Source of the DNA: Acaryochloris marina MBIC11017
GTDB lineage: Bacteria; Cyanobacteriota; Cyanobacteriia; Thermosynechococcales; Thermosynechococcaceae
Assembly (NCBI RefSeq): GCF_000018105.1
Contig: NC_009925.1
Location: forward strand, 4,500,001-4,532,000
DNA length: 32,000 nucleotides
Direction of reading: 5' to 3'
Shown here: positions 704 to 16,238 of the stretch, in pieces
Layout: every line of letters starts with the position of its first letter
Position numbering within the stretch: the stretch's first letter is position 1
Position numbers and translations under genes: made by a program
Notes under the pieces: model-generated
Databases searched by the model: none
The model's input: the letters and a program-made list of their open reading frames with translations, nothing else
Told to the model about the DNA's origin: nothing

Positions 704-1888
704 TTAGGCCGCGATTGCCGAGGTATCTAAACTTTGGTGGACTGCCGCCACAACATCCTCAACATCTAGGTCGTTCAATTTAGCGGACAAGGGAATGCTA
801 ACGGTTTGTTGGCCAATGCGGGTGGCATGGGGATAGTCCTGAGGTTGCCAGCCAAACCGGTGTTGATAGTAGGGATGCTCTGGCAGGCTTAAATAGTGAA
901 CGCCAGTACCAATATGTTGGCGATGCATGGCAACCAGGAACTGGTCACGACTAATCCCCGTTTGGCTTTCATCAATGAGGAGGGTATAGAGGTGATACCC
1001 ATGCACCGTGTTTGGGGCTGGGGGGGTGGGCAGGGTGAGGGGCAGATCGGCCAGCGCCTGATTGTACTGCTGCCAGATCTGCTGCCGTCTATTCCAATAG
1101 GGGGTGACCCGTTGGAGCTGGTGAATCCCGATGGCAGCCTGAATATCCATCATGTTGTACTTAAACCCTGCTTCTACCACTTGGTAATGGTTATAGCCAT
1201 CATCACTAAAGCGCTTCCACGCATCTTGGCTCATGCCGTGGAGAGCCAACACTTTAATCCGATCTGTATCTTCCTGGGTTTGGGTGAGAATCATGCCCCC
1301 CTCCCCCGTCGTAATGTTCTTGGTGACGTAGAAGCTAAAGCAGCCAAAGTTGCTAAAGGTTCCGGCTTTGCGTCCTTGATATTCTGTCTCAATGGCATGG
1401 GCGCAGTCTTCGATTAGCACCAAGCTATATTGCTCTGCTAAAGCACAAAGGGCATCCATCTCGCAGGGACGACCGGCAAAATGGACGGGAATAATGGCTT
1501 TGGTGCGATCGGTAATTTTGGCTTCGACCTGAGCTGGATCGATATTCATGGTCTCCGGATCGACATCCGCCAAGACTGGGACACCCCCTGCATGGATGAT
1601 GGCATTGGCCGTGGCACAGAAAGTTAACGGCGTAGTGATCACCTCATCGCCGGGATTGAGACCCGCTGCCAACAGGCTTAGGTGTAAAGCAGCAGTACAG
1701 GAATTGACTGCGATCGCATGTTGGCTACCTTTATAGGTGCAAAAATCCTGTTCAAACCGCATCACTTTCGGGCCAGTCCCCAACCAGCCCGTTCGCATGC
1801 TAGCCATGACTTCTTGCATTTCCGCTTCTTCAATAGCGGGAGAACCAAATACCAAAAATTGGTCTTTTGAACGGGGCATGCATCTCAC
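704..1888 (-). CDS. DegT/DnrJ/EryC1/StrS-family PLP-dependent sugar aminotransferase
   Basis: 394-aa ORF with full-length family resemblance: 'FGSPAIEEAEMQEVMASMRTGWLGTGPKV', 'SCTAALHLSL', 'DEVITTPLTFCAT', 'IPVHFAGRPCEMD', and the PLP-lysine context 'FSFYVTKNITTGEGGM'. Confidence 0.9.
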   Translation of the reverse strand: MRCMPRSKDQFLVFGSPAIEEAEMQEVMASMRTGWLGTGPKVMRFEQDFCTYKGSQHAIAVNSCTAALHLSLLAAGLNPGDEVITTPLTFCATANAIIHAGGVPVLADVDPETMNIDPAQVEAKITDRTKAIIPVHFAGRPCEMDALCALAEQYSLVLIEDCAHAIETEYQGRKAGTFSNFGCFSFYVTKNITTGEGGMILTQTQEDTDRIKVLALHGMSQDAWKRFSDDGYNHYQVVEAGFKYNMMDIQAAIGIHQLQRVTPYWNRRQQIWQQYNQALADLPLTLPTPPAPNTVHGYHLYTLLIDESQTGISRDQFLVAMHRQHIGTGVHYLSLPEHPYYQHRFGWQPQDYPHATRIGQQTVSIPLSAKLNDLDVEDVVAAVHQSLDTSAIAA

Positions 1889-8059: not shown

Positions 8060-11000
8060 TCAGGACCGAGAATGAGTTGGAGTACAGAGTTGACGTTCTT
8101 GATCGAGCAAATTCGCCGTTGGATTATTGAGATAGAGCTGTAACCACTCACAACTTCTAATCAGCAGCTTATCTAAACTCAAGGCCTCAACTGCCCAAAC
8201 TTTCACCCCTTGATTCTCAGACGCTGTGGCCACAAACTGACCATCAGCGCTAAAGCTGAGATCAAACAAACGACTGCTGCCATGCTTAAACTCAGCTAGT
8301 TGACGCCCCTGCAGTTCCCATAGCCGCAAGGTACCATCTTCGGAAACCGTTGCCAGGGATTGACCATCAGGGCTAAACCGCACACCTCGAACGGCCCCTC
8401 GATGTCCTTCAAACTTGGCTAGAGATTGCCCCTCCAAATCCCACAGCCGTGCTGTGCCGTCATCGGAAGCTGTAGCCAAAGATTGTCCGTCAGGGCTAAA
8501 CTCCACCGTCCATACTCGGCCTTGATGTCCTTCTAAAATGGCAGTGGTTTGACCCGTCATTGACCAAAGACGAACGGTCTGATCCGCTGAGGCCGTCGCT
8601 ACAATCGGTTCGGTGGGACTAAAAGTAACGCTCCAAATGGGACTCCGATGTCCCCGCAAAATTGCGAGAGGCTGTCCCTGCCAATTCCACAGTCGAGCAG
8701 TACCATCTTTAGAGGCGGTCGCGATGCGTTGAGCAGTGGGGTTAATACTAACGCCAAAGACTTCCGACTGATGCCCACGCAATTCGGTGATTAAGTCTCC
8801 AGTATTCGACCAGACCCGCGCCGTGCGATCGCCTGATGCCGTGGCAAAATACTCTCCCTGCTGAGTAATGTCCCAAATTCGACCCGCATGGGCATCAATC
8901 CGCAGCCGTTCTTCCCCGGACTGATCCCATAGGCGGATAAACTGATCGCCACCCGCCGTCACCATGGCTGGATCTGAAGACATAAAACTAAGGCTGAGAA
9001 CGGGGCGAGCATGTTTGAGAACCTGCACTGGACCTTTCTGGCGCAAGTTCCATAAACGGGTGGTGTAGTCTTCTGAACCGGAGACTAACCATTTGCCATC
9101 GGGACTAAACTGCACGCTCCTCACCCAATCCTGGTGACCTTTCAGGGTTTCGAGTCGCTCCCCCTCCGAGTCCCAAATATGAATGAGGCGATCTGCTGCG
9201 GCTGAGGCCAGTTGTTTACCATCGGCACTGAAAACGACGCTAAACACCTGGGTACGATGACCATTCCAACTGCGGATGAGCTTGCCTGAACGACTCCACA
9301 GGTGCAGATAGCCATCATAGGAGCCAGTGGCTAGGACTTGACCATCCGGTCGCCAGTGCAAACTGCGAACGGGGCCATGCCCTACCGGGATTTTCAAAAT
9401 TCGCTGTCCTTGAAGATTGGAAATTTGGACAGTCTGATCAAAAGAAGCAGAGGCTAGGGTTTGACCATCAGGACTGAACTGAAGAGCTGTAATGGCAGAA
9501 GGATGGGGACGAAAATCGGCTAAAGGCTGCCCCTTTTTGTCCCATAGCCAAACCTGACCGTCATTGGTGGCAGTGGCGATCGCACCATCTGCCGTGGGTG
9601 GACAGCTCACAGCGTTAACGGGCTGGGGATGGGGCAATGTTGTAAGGAGGTTACCCTGTAAATCCCATAACCGAGCAGTGCGATCTGCTGCGGTGGTGAC
9701 TAGGGTTTTGCCGCTCAGGCAAGCATCCGTTACCCCGGAGCGATGTCCCACCATTTTGGCTAACAGATTGCCTTCCAAATCCCAGAGCCGCACTTCCTGA
9801 TCTTGGGAGGCTGTAATGAGCCGTTGACCATCTGGGGTAAAACGAACTCGCGTAATGCCCCGCTGATGCCCGCGAATTTGGTTCTGCTCTCGCATATCTT
9901 CCAAGATCTGCTGCAGGGCGAGCAGCGGGGTCAGGGTGGGAAAGTTAGGCGGCTCTCCCCAATCCTGCATTTTTCGTGCTGTTTTTAGGGCTAAGAGCAG
10001 GGCTTCTAGCTGTTTGAATTCAGATTGTTGCAAGGCTTGTCGAGCATCGCGCTCAATGGCTGTGACTTCCTGGGCTTTGCGAATGGAGGTGTTGGCCCAG
10101 AATGCGATCGCACCTGCTGATACGGCAATTCCCACCAACGCGATCAACCCCGTCAACACCGTCCTTCTGGCCCGTCGCTGGGCTTGAGCCAGGATGGCAT
10201 CGGCTTCTGCTTGCTGACAGGCCGCTAAATAACGATAGTCTTCATCACTGAGCTGTTTCCCAATCGACCACTGCTGAGCGGCCTGTAAGGGTTCGCCTGA
10301 TAGAAAGTTGGATTGGTTCTTTTGCCATTGACGGAGGGCAGCGGCATAGAAGGGCGGTCGCAAACGGGCTACGACGTCCTGTACCCAGTCAGCATTAAAA
10401 ATTTGGGCATAGATGCGATTGGCAACGACCAGTTTTTCAAGTCGGTTGACCACTAGCCCCGATAATCGCAGCTCTACCTGGGCGGGACTGGCATCTGCCT
10501 TGATCGACCCCTGCTGCAAAATCTGTTGATAGAGGTCGAGGACTTTGCTGGCGTATTGTTCGTTACTGAGGATGCGATCGCGGATGGTTCTCAAATGCTC
10601 TGGTTCATCCTGGGCTTCCCAGTTCGCCAGCAGTTTGTCCTGAATAAACTGGGTCACCCATATGGCAATCGCCTCAGCTTGAGTCGGCAGTTGAGCCGCT
10701 GACTGGGCAATCATCTGACAAATTTTTTGGGTCAGAAAGGGCTGTCCCCCGGTCCAAGAGAGTACGGCCTGTAAAACAGCTTGGGCTTGCGGTGTCTGGG
10801 CAGTGAGTCCGGCGACTAAAGGCTGGGCTTCTGCGATTTGAAAACCCTTTAACTCAATGGCGTGGCCCAAATTGAACGGGGTGCGCTGTTTATCCTGAAT
10901 GAGTCGCGACGGGGTGGCAACCCCCAACAGGACAAAGGCTAGCCGCTGGTAGTCCGCATTATCAGTTCGATGGTTATAGCAGGCTCGTAAAACCGCAAAG

Positions 11001-11470
11001 AAATCATCTTTAAACGGCAGCCGTAGAACGCTATCGATTTCATCGATAAAAATGACCAGCTTGTTTGTACATTCCACTAGCAGGATGGTTTCGATAAAGG
11101 TATGAAACCGCTGCACGGGCGACAGCAGGGCCTGGTCACGCCACCATTGCCGTAAATTAAAGCGATCGCTTAACTGAAAGCTGCTGACTAAACTGCGAAT
11201 CAGTCCGGCATACCATTGGTCTGGCGTAATTTGCTGGCTCCCCATTTGAGTGAGTTCAATGGCGGCGCAGGCAATGCCTTCTGCTTGGAGTTGCTGCATC
11301 ACCTGGACCCGCAGACTGGATTTTCCCATCTGCCGGGAATTCAACACGTAGCAGAACTCGCCTGCCCTCAGCTTTTGATACAGCTCCTGATCGGCAGACC
11401 GGGTCACATAAGAAGGGGCATCAGCAGGTAGACTCCCTCCCACCTGATATTCATAAGAGGAGCCAATCAT
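8060..11470 (-). CDS. AAA-like (PF14516-type, STAND-style) P-loop NTPase - single TM helix - 14 WD40 repeats
   Basis: The N-terminus '[48 protein letters not shown]' has Walker A at nt 11315-11341. Walker B '[10 protein letters not shown]' is at nt 11030-11059. '[11 protein letters not shown]' and a winged-helix-like end '[23 protein letters not shown]' follow. A TM helix '[29 protein letters not shown]' is at nt 10097-10162. After that come 14 GH...WD-type blades ([27 protein letters not shown] ... [18 protein letters not shown]). Confidence 0.9.
8150..9874 (-). repeat. In-frame WD40 repeat array (14 units, about 41 codons each)
   Basis: A strict 123-nt periodicity is visible in the DNA. 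The motif ccatcagcgctaaa / ccatcagggctaaa / ccgtcagggctaaa / tcggtgggactaaa recurs at 8241, 8364, 8487 and about 8610. This is coding periodicity, not a non-coding tandem repeat. Confidence 0.8.
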
Positions 11471-12966: not shown

Positions 12967-13338
12967 TTAGTTTATAGCTGCAATCGTTACCGTTCCGCCT
13001 GTAGTGACATCAACGTGCAACTTAAATCCATATAGCAAGCTCATGCCGATTAGCGGATCTGCTTCAGACGCTGCCACATCAATAATCTGAGGTTTGCCAT
13101 CCCAAATTACGGTTGCTTTATGCATATCAAAAACGACCTCACTGCCATCGCCTAAAGTTCCAATATCACGGAAATACCAAGGTAGGCCAAGGCTGGTAAT
13201 GGTTGAAGGTGGAAGAGATAAAAAGCCTGTGAACCCTGTATCAATCACGGCTTCAACGATTTGTTTGGGTGCATCAGCATGACCCACTGCAATGCGAAGG
13301 ATGGCTTCACAACGTTGGTTGACGAAGCCGTGCATCAT
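12967..13338 (-). CDS. Clan AA (retropepsin-like) aspartic protease
   Basis: 123 aa. The catalytic 'AVIDTGFTGFLSLP' has D-T-G at nt 13234-13242. 'GTLGDGSEV...ATVIWDGK...DPLIGMSLLYGFKLHVD' is the typical layout of small prokaryotic retropepsin-like proteases. Confidence 0.85.
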   Translation of the reverse strand: MMHGFVNQRCEAILRIAVGHADAPKQIVEAVIDTGFTGFLSLPPSTITSLGLPWYFRDIGTLGDGSEVVFDMHKATVIWDGKPQIIDVAASEADPLIGMSLLYGFKLHVDVTTGGTVTIAAIN

Positions 13339-13610
13339 ACGGTGTTTTTACGACTTCGGGAGCCAAAACGATAGACGGCCTGATGACCTATCCGAATCAC
13401 CCAGGGTTGAGCGTTCGGAAAACGTTCATAAAGTCGATCTGTTGCTGAAATAGGGGTATCAGCTACCTCAAAAGCGCCCGTTTCGATATCAATTGCCACA
13501 ATTTTGCCATGATTGCCCGCTTCAACTTGAGAGCGTACCTGGGTTTCATAAATCTCATTGCCTTGTTTAGCAAACTCTTCTTTACTATAGCGAGGGTGTT
13601 GAACGGTCAT
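13335..13610 (-). CDS. Small (91 aa) hypothetical protein, translationally coupled partner of the aspartic protease
   Basis: Its stop TGA (13337-13335) overlaps the protease ATG (13338-13336), giving an ATGA junction. 'KEEFAKQGNEIYETQVRSQVEAGNHGKIVAIDIETGAFEVADT' recalls small antitoxin-like 'G-K-x-V-A-I ... G' proteins. That resemblance is by eye only. Confidence 0.7.
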   Translation of the reverse strand: MTVQHPRYSKEEFAKQGNEIYETQVRSQVEAGNHGKIVAIDIETGAFEVADTPISATDRLYERFPNAQPWVIRIGHQAVYRFGSRSRKNTV

Positions 13611-13836
13611 TGGCTGGTGACGTTACGCTAGTTATGCTCACTATTCTAACTTTGGAAATGGTGCTCCAGTGCTGTTGGACCAAGTTGTCAAATCTTGAAT
13701 AGTCATAAGCCTGCCACCCATCATTACGCTCGCTTGCTGGTCTTGGCTCTATGGACCCGAATGCCTTGCACCAGCATGAGTAGTAGTAAAACTCAACTGT
13801 GTACCAAGTTTTTATACAAAGATCTTTAGTAAAGCA

Positions 13837-14787
13837 TTATTCATAGGTTGTCCACTCAAAACCTAACTGCCTGACTGATGGTAAGTCACACAAATCGAAG
13901 TATTGTGTTTCCAAAATCCTTGCAATAACTTCCACCCCCAAGGTGTAACTAGGAATATGGAGTTTATCTTCTTTCCAAACACCCTCCTCTTCACCCTTGA
14001 GGAAATTATATTTATGATGCCAATCATCCAAATGAACAAGCTTTTCTAAATCTTTTGAAACATACAGAGATAGCTCTTCATCTGTTGAATATAATTCCTC
14101 TCCATAACTTTCTACTAGATGAACTAAAAGATCAAAGTCAAACTCGGGCGCTCGGTTTTGTCTGACTACATCTTTTGATGGAATTTCAACTAAGTCATTA
14201 CGAATATAGACCTCTAATTCTTGAGGGATAATAGGCGTGTGACTTTCATCATATTCAATTTCCCATTTGTACCATTCAAAAGGGGAATGCAAAACTGGCG
14301 TGTCAAATCCTTGTGCTACTTTTACACCAGGTCCATAGGCACGGAGCATCAGTCCTATCCCATCTGAAGACGGGTAGTTCATAAGTAGTTCATATACAAT
14401 CGCCCAGCTCTCTTGATTGCAAAACCCTGTTACTCTAACTGCTGCGATATCAACGTTCAGAGTGAGTAGAGGGTAATCACTCTTATCCAAATATTGAAGA
14501 ATCTCATCTGCAGTGAAGCCCCTCGATTTCTTCTGAAGCGAATATTCAGGTAGGGCCGATGAGAGTTCTTTAAGAAAAGCACTTTTAGAGCTTTCATAGC
14601 TCTGAATCCTGCGCACCTCATCCTCAAAATATTCCGGAACGATCTTGGCTTTAGCGTCATCTTGCACATTTTCAAAATCTCCCAAAATCTGTGCTGCGAC
14701 CGCATCTTGCATATTAGGAGGCAAAGTCAAAAGCGAAGCTTTGATCTTAGCAATGGCTTGTTCAGCAAGTTCTGTAAGTTCTGTCAT
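13837..14787 (-). CDS. Orphan hypothetical protein (316 aa, acidic), no recognisable motif
   Basis: Long ATG-initiated ORF in markedly AT-rich DNA. Spot counts give 18/60 and 24/60 G+C in lines 14041 and 14101. It lies 116 nt downstream of the HTH-AAA-like NTPase on the same strand. The overlapping track ORFs are shorter and out of frame. Confidence 0.7.
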   Translation of the reverse strand: MTELTELAEQAIAKIKASLLTLPPNMQDAVAAQILGDFENVQDDAKAKIVPEYFEDEVRRIQSYESSKSAFLKELSSALPEYSLQKKSRGFTADEILQYLDKSDYPLLTLNVDIAAVRVTGFCNQESWAIVYELLMNYPSSDGIGLMLRAYGPGVKVAQGFDTPVLHSPFEWYKWEIEYDESHTPIIPQELEVYIRNDLVEIPSKDVVRQNRAPEFDFDLLVHLVESYGEELYSTDEELSLYVSKDLEKLVHLDDWHHKYNFLKGEEEGVWKEDKLHIPSYTLGVEVIARILETQYFDLCDLPSVRQLGFEWTTYE

Positions 14788-14903: not shown

Positions 14904-16238
14904 TCAGCTCGAATATATCCTTTGAAAATAAGATTCATAGAGGTCATTGCGGGGAATAACTTGATTATTCTCTCGCTTAATTAACCCCATACTGTGGAGT
15001 TTATAGGCTTGCACAGGGTTAAGGGATGCTGTAGCCGTTAGCACACCTTGAAACGCCTGCATCAGATCAGGCGTCTGTTGCAAAGTGACCCAGTGGTGTA
15101 GGAGATGAGCACTATAAATCCCCTCATCACTAGCAGCCATTTGCACAAGCTGCATAAACGTCAGTTCCCGCGTACTTAGGGCAGATAGCGCCACCCGAAC
15201 CAAATAGGGATGCCCCCCAATCATCGCCATTAATTTAGACAATTCACCCTCACTGAGAGCCACCTGATGCAGTTGGGCCAGATGTTGGATTTGGTGAGCA
15301 GTAAACTCCGACAGACCAATAGGCACCCCTGTATTAAAAGGGGATTGATGATAATCCAGGGGAATATAGGCTTCCGTTGAATGAACCAAAATCAGACGTA
15401 ATTGCTGCCATTGCTGAGAGATACGTCCCTTCTCATGCCAGCTCCGCAACATGCCAAAAAAGTCTTCAATAATGTCTTGAAAGGGAAACAGACGATCGAC
15501 ATTATCGAGTCCTAAAACAAACGGCCCCTTCACTTCTGGGAATATATGATCTTCAAAATAAGCCGTGCAATTGTCATTACTGCCAAAAATCTCTGAATCC
15601 CAAAGTTCTGACAGGCGATTCGTTAGATGGAGTTGGCGGCTGCTCATGGCGCAGAGCCACTTTAATAGCTTCTCCAAGCTCGCCAACACAGACTTATCGA
15701 TACTACCCATATCGATATAAACCGTGGGATAGGCTTGCTTTTGGGCAAAGGCCATCAAGTGATAGAGCAACGAGGTTTTACCCATCAGTTGTGGTGCTTT
15801 AATCCGCAGTAATGCTCCTGGTTTGAGCAAGGTCTGACAGCCCAATTGCTCGACCCCCGACCGTTCTAAATAAAACGGGGACTCCGGCGAAATCGGACCT
15901 TCAATAATTGGGGCTGGACTTGAGATTACGACAGGTGGAGCGTGGACCTGCTGTTCCCAAGCCCGTCGTAACGCCTCTTTGAAATTGGTTTTACTGACCT
16001 TCTCGTTGAGTGCCTGCCCCAAGCGTTTCCACAAAGGATTGCCAATATCCCGATTGAGGTAGGCCGCTCCATAGTGCAGCTGCTCCGCCATTTGCTCATA
16101 GGTTTGGTGATGCCAAGACCCTTGCAATACCTGGACTTCTAAATCGCTGAGATGCTTGGCGGTCGCCGCAAAAATGAGTTGATTGGCAAAGTCCCGAGCC
16201 ACGGGCCAGCTAAAGTCTGCGTCGTTCTCCATACCCAA
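14904..16238 (-). CDS. HTH (sigma-70 region 4/LuxR-like) fused to an AAA-like (PF14516-type) P-loop NTPase
   Basis: The HTH is 'LSDLEVQVLQGSWHHQTYEQMAEQLHYGAAYLNRDIGNPLWKRLGQALNEKVSKTNFKEAL', followed by a Pro/Ser linker. Walker A 'KAPQLMGKTSL' is at nt 15771-15800 and Walker B is 'FVLGLDNVDRL'. 'SPFNTGVPIGLSEF', 'IGGHPYLV' and 'MGLIKRENNQVIPRNDLYESYF' parallel '[14 protein letters not shown]', 'TGGQPFLT' and '[22 protein letters not shown]' of the 1136-aa protein. The track start is TTG 16238; ATG 16232 is the likelier start. Confidence 0.85.
   Translation of the reverse strand: MGMENDADFSWPVARDFANQLIFAATAKHLSDLEVQVLQGSWHHQTYEQMAEQLHYGAAYLNRDIGNPLWKRLGQALNEKVSKTNFKEALRRAWEQQVHAPPVVISSPAPIIEGPISPESPFYLERSGVEQLGCQTLLKPGALLRIKAPQLMGKTSLLYHLMAFAQKQAYPTVYIDMGSIDKSVLASLEKLLKWLCAMSSRQLHLTNRLSELWDSEIFGSNDNCTAYFEDHIFPEVKGPFVLGLDNVDRLFPFQDIIEDFFGMLRSWHEKGRISQQWQQLRLILVHSTEAYIPLDYHQSPFNTGVPIGLSEFTAHQIQHLAQLHQVALSEGELSKLMAMIGGHPYLVRVALSALSTRELTFMQLVQMAASDEGIYSAHLLHHWVTLQQTPDLMQAFQGVLTATASLNPVQAYKLHSMGLIKRENNQVIPRNDLYESYFQRIYSS

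Follow-up and report, generated by a model that had tools for sequence, protein, structure and literature searches.

The window analysed here is a stretch of 32,000 nucleotides from Acaryochloris marina MBIC11017 (contig NC_009925.1, positions 4,500,001 to 4,532,000). It carries on its minus strand a two-gene unit that encodes a small protein, called the partner below, and a retropepsin-like aspartic protease. The stop codon of the partner gene overlaps with the start codon of the protease gene (Table 1). A preliminary description, made from the letters of the window, named the two genes, the shared ATGA and the DTG motif of a clan AA protease, and all of these are present at the locus. It also placed the pair in an AT-rich patch between two NTPase genes, which agrees with our analysis. 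The GC content of the patch is 0.38-0.47 compared to ~0.52 in the flanks, and a PF14516 (AAA_35) gene is found on either side.

Table 1. Coordinates of the pair and its signals, of neighbouring genes and of related fusion genes. Positions refer to the window unless a locus is named.
Feature	Position	Strand	Remarks
Partner gene	13335-13610	minus	91 aa; open reading frame (ORF) call
Protease gene	12967-13338	minus	123 aa; free-standing retropepsin-like aspartic protease
ATGA stop/start overlap, partner to protease	13335-13338	minus	TCAT on the plus strand; 4 nt shared
Codons for catalytic Asp33-Thr34-Gly35 of the protease	13234-13242	minus	from the sequence
Codons for protease L96-I-G-M-S-L-L102, second retropepsin hallmark	13033-13053	minus	from alignment and model
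Putative -10 hexamer TAGAAT	13643-13648	minus	33-38 nt upstream of the partner ATG; inferred
Imperfect 15-nt inverted repeat	13640-13703	none	arms 13640-13654 and 13689-13703; 80% complementary
DUF7003 gene	13837-14787	minus	316 aa; directly upstream of the pair
PF14516 gene, shorter	14904-16238	minus	
PF14516 gene, longer	8060-11470	minus	
DUF5678-retropepsin fusion, example	L156:1075-1704	minus	from loci in the range L154-L178
DUF5678-retropepsin fusion, example	L155:1435-2061	plus	from the same range
DUF5678-retropepsin fusion, example	L168:1051-1659	minus	from the same range

The protease matches the NCBIfam model TIGR03698 (clan_AA_DTGF) with 62.0 bits against a cutoff of 57.35, and no Pfam aspartyl-protease model matches it at E <= 0.1. 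In an alignment of 53 protease sequences, Asp33 and Gly35 are invariant and Thr34 is nearly invariant. The catalytic motif is intact in 51 of the 53 intact protease relatives. Further downstream in the same alignment Leu96 is invariant, and Gly98, Met99, Leu101 and Leu102 are nearly invariant (>=90%), with residues 99-102 forming a helix in the protease model. The counterpart of this hallmark in the HIV-1 protease is IIGRNLL. The AlphaFold2 (AF2) monomer model has a predicted local distance difference test score (pLDDT) of 94.5. Foldseek against the PDB returns, all with a probability of 1.00, the Rickettsia protease APRc (5c9b), the proteases of HTLV-1 (2b7f), EIAV (1fmb), FIV and XMRV (3nr6), and Ddi1 (7efy). 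The query-normalised template modelling (TM) scores of the retropepsin and Ddi1 entries are 0.45-0.61. As modelled, the protease has the single-lobe beta-barrel fold of retropepsins. By sequence there is no meaningful PDB match for either protein of the pair. No signal peptide or membrane segment is found in the protease (maximum 19-residue hydropathy 1.11), and its isoelectric point (pI) is 4.9. It is thus predicted to be a bare soluble cytoplasmic retropepsin domain, which in sequence and model shows every hallmark of an active retropepsin and no export signal. A different protease scoring with TIGR03698 (66 bits, ADTGA motif) is encoded at ORF 1396-1869 (+) of locus L141 (G110:C2:157915-161223) in a small high-GC cyanobacterial genome. 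No small partner was detected for it, and its flanking genes, judged by eye only, resemble an Xre-type antitoxin and a PIN-domain protein.

Public records annotate the partner as 'hypothetical protein'. It has 4053 homologs, and the best 120 of these are 76-98% identical to the query and bear names from several cyanobacterial orders. No match is found in Pfam, NCBIfam, PADLOC or PHROGs, and no relatives are found on IMG/VR viral contigs. The AF2 monomer model (pLDDT 81) consists of a helix (residues 10-29), a hairpin (37-50), a second helix (53-63), a second hairpin (69-82) and a disordered tail (83-91); residues 35-52 read GKIVAIDIETGAFEVADT. Both termini are disordered in the model yet conserved in sequence, including Arg4, Arg7, Tyr8 and Lys10 at the start and Phe82, Gly83, Arg85, Ser86 and Leu87 at the end. 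The pI of the partner is 8.1. Foldseek of the model against the PDB gives no match (best E 0.6). Its best match in BFVD is a Pandoravirus DUF5678 protein, with a probability of 0.97, TM scores of 0.55/0.60, a root-mean-square deviation of 2.7 Å over 74 columns and E = 0.067. The Pfam gathering cutoff of DUF5678 (PF18929) is 23.2 bits. Neither the window partner nor any of 32 family members matches this model even at E <= 10, neither partner copy is found in a DUF5678 search of the own genome, and an hhalign comparison of the partner profile with the DUF5678 C-terminal region encoded in that genome is not significant. P0302, a homolog of relatives in which the partner domain is tandemly duplicated, passes the DUF5678 model with 26.4 bits, on the GK-x-V-A-I hairpin core. 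The link to the DUF5678 lineage is drawn from Pfam, the fold match and P0302, not from direct profile similarity, and judging from the model we describe the partner as a divergent DUF5678-like protein.

No Shine-Dalgarno sequence precedes the protease ATG (stretch CGTAAAAACACCGTATGA). Translation of the protease thus probably occurs by termination-reinitiation after the partner stop codon, and the overlap implies translational coupling of the two genes. The preliminary description went further and took the overlap as a sign of fixed stoichiometry, which is more than an ATGA can tell: it implies coupling alone. Upstream of the partner gene no full sigma-70 site is found in a consensus scan. A TAnAAT-like hexamer is present at equal distance from the gene in seven aligned upstream regions, which are otherwise unalignable. 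One arm of the inverted repeat covers this putative -10 box, and the second arm has the same letters in the aligned upstream sequence from the same genus. The repeat is a possible operator, which we note as a weak lead.

The two genes occur together in a nearly obligatory manner. In a phylum sample of 301 genomes each protein is present in 67 genomes, and of 93 strong protease matches, 90 are preceded at once by a partner match on the same strand. Two of the three exceptions are fragments. The third is an intact protease on a 712-bp contig (G300:C65), which ends ~200 bp upstream of the protease and is too short for a full partner gene. The gene order is fixed. A 4-nt overlap is found in 49 of 53 intact pairs of the named genomes and, among the 34 intact pairs listed from loci of the phylum sample, in 24, some of which are just 33-40% identical to the window pair. 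The ATGA form persists across subfamilies to ~30% identity. Such recurrence of order and overlap is far beyond chance. Furthermore, the two proteins diverge together: the identity matrices of partner and protease over 87 pairs correlate with r = 0.87, a value reached by none of 999 permutations. The preliminary description had named a lack of conserved co-occurrence among the findings that would refute it, and the nearly obligatory pairing, in the same order and with the same overlap, shows the opposite.

Multiple copies in cyanobacteria, which it also proposed to look for, are observed. A second pair in the A. marina genome has the same gene order, with identities of 64% and 53%. In the 301-genome sample, the number of small-gene matches per genome ranges from 1 to 14, and the genome with 14 matches shares a 3.3-kb locus at 100% identity with a Microcystis aeruginosa metagenome-assembled genome (MAG). 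The second A. marina copy (C1, ~1.5712-1.5725 Mb) is bracketed by ~240-nt direct repeats that are 86-92% identical (L002:1196-1438 and 2288-2518). Each repeat corresponds to the 3' portion of a gene for an ABC-transporter ATPase, and this pair seems to lie within a gene fragment that has been duplicated.

A distant protease subfamily (28-33% identity) forms tandem arrays of three pairs, in which each retropepsin of 120-126 aa has its own upstream partner of 104-105 aa (L134, G041:C1:1948400-1952200; L135, G284:C86:18800-22800). These partners are homologous to the window family (hhalign 95.7%, E 9e-9). An ATGA-type 4-nt overlap is found in five of the six array pairs, and the overlap in the third pair of L135 is longer if the ORF start is taken as predicted. 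Close members of the family are cyanobacterial, relatives are present in at least one MAG of the Acidimicrobiaceae, and a profile search yields 3550 clusters at 50% identity. There is no conserved third gene: over 80 loci, the 145 nearest neighbours match 168 Pfam families, and the NTPases are thus outside the module. An accidental adjacency, in which the small ORF would not be a real gene or the two neighbours would be functionally unrelated, has nothing in its favour beyond the missing annotation of the small protein. The many partner homologs, their confident fold, dN/dS values (nonsynonymous to synonymous substitution rates, solo versus paired partners) well below 1 and the retention of pairing, order and overlap across subfamilies and phyla all speak against it. 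It is refuted by the pairing census, the homology of the distant partners, the retained overlap and the co-divergence, and its probability is practically negligible.

The genomic behaviour of the pair resembles that of a toxin-antitoxin (TA) system: it is patchy and plasmid-borne, its context is variable and often includes TA genes, and the protease is lost while the partner is kept. The pair is found on 10 cyanobacterial plasmids. On pCC7120alpha of Nostoc PCC 7120, the gene of WP_010999914.1 (hypothetical protein) overlaps that of WP_010999913.1 ('clan AA aspartic protease') by 4 nt. This pair (L150, NC_003276.1:388878-394132) has a DNA methyltransferase/DUF1392 cluster on one side and a ParDE pair on the other, and lies near the nuclease NucA and its inhibitor NuiA, another gene pair of an enzyme plus its inhibitor. 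In general, the neighbourhoods often contain HicAB, PIN, DUF433, MazF or DUF4160 genes.

The decay of the pair is strongly one-sided. Just 95 of 138 near-full partner matches retain any protease, and at 75 informative loci of the named genomes we find a full protease in 53 cases, a remnant in 12 and none in 10. The protease is truncated at L005, L021, L028 and L038, the module is disrupted by insertion sequences (ISs) at L006 and L018, and intact protease ORFs carry active-site substitutions at L090 (Asp to Asn) and L114 (Thr to Ile). The reverse case is seen once, at L008, where the partner is slightly truncated and the protease intact. Solo partners compared with their nearest paired relatives show dN/dS values of 0.07-0.22 and are under purifying selection. 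At least one complete genome (G200) carries a solo partner and no detectable family protease. At L006 (450-1486) the gene that separates partner and protease is an IS630-like transposase gene, and at L018 (1909-2337), in a Microcystis-like genome, an IS200/IS605-type TnpA gene lies inside the 5' part of the protease; both types are assigned from the translated ORF alone. An apparent partner-protease fusion of 224 aa (G190:C98, L147) turned out to be a frameshifted, N-terminally truncated decayed locus and not a Rosetta stone.

The simplest interpretation is that the DUF5678-like partner serves as the cognate regulatory domain of the protease, provided in trans and produced first owing to translational coupling. 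The one-sided decay suggests that it restrains an activity which is harmful when free, as an inhibitor, a pro-domain or an antitoxin. We therefore favour, as a reading with about equal weight for and against it, that the partner neutralises a cytoplasmic protease harmful when unchecked, and that the pair is a TA-like or defence module with a new class of toxin. The pair would be an autonomous bicistronic module with its own promoter just upstream of the partner gene. Only ribosomes that had just completed the partner would go on to translate the protease, and with such coupling the partner would always come first and probably be at least as abundant. As for all retropepsins, the active form of the protease would be a homodimer to which each chain contributes one DTG, and its free activity would be deleterious to the cell. 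The DUF5678-like partner would bind it and keep it inactive, acting as a pro-domain or an inhibitor in trans, and the pair would act as a type II TA, addiction or abortive-infection module. It would spread horizontally, multiply within genomes, occupy plasmids and decay by loss of the protease with the partners persisting.

Several partner relatives may inform on the stoichiometry of such a complex. The partner domain is duplicated in one polypeptide in P0134, P0142, P0144 and P0227 and triplicated in P0164, and P0227 is followed by a protease gene with a 1-nt overlap (L152:2798-3507). A tandem-duplicated partner upstream of a protease would fit a dimeric target. One relative, P0297, comes from an Acidimicrobiaceae MAG, and several others look non-cyanobacterial by composition. 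A more specific scenario is that the retropepsin dimer is held by a DUF5678-like pro-domain, in trans or, in fusions, in cis, until phage infection, element loss or another such trigger frees it to cleave essential proteins, which would define a new protease-based class of TA or abortive-infection systems. This scenario is tentative, and we would lean slightly against it.

Several observations weigh against a TA-like module. In 85% of the pairwise comparisons the conservation of the partner exceeds that of the protease, which is the reverse of most TA pairs. It contains no recognisable DNA-binding or antitoxin domain, with no match to helix-turn-helix (HTH), ribbon-helix-helix (RHH) or AbrB models. 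Neither protein matches a TA or defence family in PADLOC, Pfam, NCBIfam or PHROGs. The basic partner and the acidic protease are opposite to the common pattern of acidic antitoxin and basic toxin. The whole local synteny is retained in a same-genus genome and the pair is 98% conserved there, so it is not visibly mobile at this locus. The asymmetric decay could also be expected if a protease without partner is merely useless and not harmful. Finally, what the analysis shows is the anatomy of the pair, its fold and catalytic motifs, the conserved pairing, the co-divergence, the asymmetric decay and the mobility, whereas physical binding, inhibition, toxicity, the trigger and the substrates are inferred. 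The TA-like character suggested in the preliminary description is supported in part, by the patchy distribution, the plasmids, the TA-gene contexts and the one-sided decay; the lack of an antitoxin-type DNA-binding domain and the higher conservation of the partner are atypical of antitoxins.

The domain type of the partner is also linked to retropepsins by natural fusions. Uncharacterised cyanobacterial proteins of ~203-210 aa combine an N-terminal DUF5678 with a C-terminal Asp_protease_2 domain (DSGA ... LLGRE), with scores of 54 bits and 32-34 bits, each above its cutoff. They are matched in 29 of 201 genomes, once per genome in 27 of them and twice in the other two. At L164, L169 and L161 DUF5678 and the retropepsin are encoded by separate adjacent ORFs. 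An hhalign comparison of the protease profile of the pair with the protease domains of these fusions is not significant, and the two groups of proteases appear to be related at the clan level only. A third pair of the DUF5678/retropepsin type is present in the A. marina genome (G000:C1:2275667-2276834; L153:868-2035, minus strand). It consists of a gene for a 248-aa protein, whose C-terminal DUF5678 scores 23.1 bits, just below the cutoff of 23.2, located 7 nt upstream of the gene for a 137-aa protein that carries the motifs DTG and IGRDIL and weakly matches Asp_protease_2 (E 0.012).

Since the partner is DUF5678-like and DUF5678 is fused to retropepsin domains, a regulatory domain in trans is a serious alternative framing. 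In a rival explanation the pair would be a two-component protease and correspond to a split DUF5678-retropepsin fusion, in which the partner is an obligatory non-inhibitory subunit that could adapt substrates, activate the protease or provide a scaffold for its dimerisation. The protease would be non-toxic and useless without the partner, its role regulatory or housekeeping-like, and its multiple copies would arise by ordinary duplication and transfer. The fusions, which are mostly single-copy, resemble an ordinary enzyme of two domains rather than a selfish module. The higher conservation of the partner is expected if it contacts a conserved cellular target, the stable synteny within the genus and the absence of an antitoxin-type DNA-binding domain agree with this explanation, and a protease that is never alone is also predicted by it. 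However, it leaves unexplained that partners remain intact under purifying selection after loss of the protease, that protease loss exceeds partner loss by more than 10 to 1, that otherwise intact proteases carry active-site substitutions, and that the pair reaches plasmids, TA-gene neighbourhoods and such high numbers of small-gene matches per genome. Because of the partner conservation, the missing DNA-binding domain and the mostly single-copy fusions we keep the two-component protease as unlikely but with a real share of the probability, and for the same reasons a small share is left for the partner being a precursor.

The latter possibility is that the protease cleaves the partner, for example in its conserved disordered N- or C-terminal segment, and so sets free an active product, either a peptide or a protein. 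It is classical for retropepsins to process the polyprotein that contains them, the partner termini combine disorder with conservation, and translational coupling supplies enzyme and substrate together. A fused partner-partner-protease ORF (P0245) also points in this direction, yet it is a singleton and may be a frameshift: its junction GTAATGATT resembles a 1-nt shift of the usual stop/start overlap, and we rejected it as evidence. A maturase would be expected to be harmless and sometimes solitary, while the protease is not found alone. Solo partners persist under selection, including the one in the complete genome G200. There is no leader/core peptide architecture in the partner and there are no export or modification genes nearby. 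Processing of the partner by the protease is thus improbable. Inhibition of a harmful protease by its partner remains the reading that we prefer.

Besides the pair, genes for the DUF7003 protein (PF22535, 68.6 bits), an HXXEE membrane protein and a pentapeptide-repeat protein are located between both PF14516 genes of the window. The two PF14516 NTPases are paralogous, and the longer one has a large C-terminal WD40 array in a STAND-like architecture. The DUF7003 gene lies in the stretch of lowest GC content (0.38-0.40). Its position is kept in the same-genus genome, and elsewhere it is without association to the pair. No link of the bracketing NTPases to the pair was found. Both the NTPases and DUF7003 were considered as parts of the system and are ruled out, with no recurrent partner over the 80 loci.

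Our literature searches on retropepsins or aspartic proteases with toxin-antitoxin systems, TIGR03698 and DUF5678 did not return a description of the pair, and the only mention of DUF5678 found in them is in an unrelated plant-pathogen study. The pair thus seems to be undescribed; as a TA-like module it would bring a new class of effector and a new fold of the partner. Should the protease be a toxin controlled by its partner, aspartic proteolysis would join the effectors of TA and abortive-infection systems, which are mostly nucleases, kinases and translation inhibitors. This would also be the first function for DUF5678 and for TIGR03698 retropepsins, and it would explain the pair in bloom-forming Microcystis, where the highest number of small-gene matches occurs, and on plasmids of Nostoc PCC 7120, a model strain. 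A bare retropepsin of 123 aa whose regulatory domain can detach would be a simple model of how retroviral-type proteases are kept inactive before dimerisation. In the tentative scenario of a new protease-based class, this large family would also contain the cellular protease, free-living and regulated by a partner, that comes closest to those of retroviruses.

A comparison with other bacterial retropepsin-like proteases shows that such enzymes do have assigned roles. The preliminary description had stated that they essentially lack one, which does not hold for APRc of Rickettsia (PMC4140852), RimB of Pseudomonas (PMC11957791) and RloA-C of P. aeruginosa (PMC11957051), although none of these belongs to the family studied here. 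Like the protease of the pair they have a single-lobe fold of clan AA and one DTG in each chain, and APRc (5c9b) is among its best structural matches. They differ in that they are described as membrane-anchored, secreted or encoded in the rimABK operon and are not reported to have a dedicated small upstream partner, whereas the protein described here is a bare cytoplasmic 123-aa domain of TIGR03698, another family. The Saci_1895-type retropepsin of Sulfolobales type III CRISPR-Cas systems (PMC3973734) is also a stand-alone domain of ~100 aa in a defence context, and a TIGR03698 match is found in Sulfolobus acidocaldarius among our control genomes. Unlike this type, the neighbours of the pair show no CRISPR association.

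The pair resembles type II TA systems such as ParDE, VapBC and HicAB (PMC2701414, PMC3141249, PMC4963859) in several respects. It is a small two-gene operon in which the gene predicted to protect comes first and the two genes overlap by 4 nt; it is multi-copy, patchy and plasmid-borne, with variable neighbourhoods beside other TA pairs; and its putative toxin genes decay while orphan partner genes persist. In contrast, the candidate toxin of the pair belongs to the aspartic proteases, which none of the TA surveys consulted lists, and the partner is without RHH, HTH or AbrB domain and more conserved than the putative toxin. The COG2856 (ImmA/IrrE) Zn-protease with Xre (PMC2701414) is likewise a protease with a small partner; the two are encoded as a mobile unit, by two genes or as a fusion, and this unit is associated with TA loci. 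However, it is a metalloprotease that cleaves an HTH repressor, while the pair lacks an HTH and has another catalytic class and the opposite gene order.

The DUF5678 proteins resemble the pair in that their domains lie N-terminal to, or directly upstream of, retropepsin domains. They differ in that the window partner stays below the DUF5678 threshold and the proteases are only clan-level kin. A further comparison can be made with staphopain and staphostatin, SpeB and Spi, and saccharopepsin and IA3. Staphopain and SpeB are secreted cysteine proteases with the inhibitor gene downstream, unlike the pair, and the IA3 system is eukaryotic and unlinked. To our knowledge there is no relation of these systems to the pair in sequence or fold. 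They provide the precedent of a small cognate inhibitor, adjacent or specific, that shields the cytoplasm of the producer. In particular, Spi resembles the pro-domain of its own protease, which parallels the occurrence of DUF5678 in both fused and split forms.

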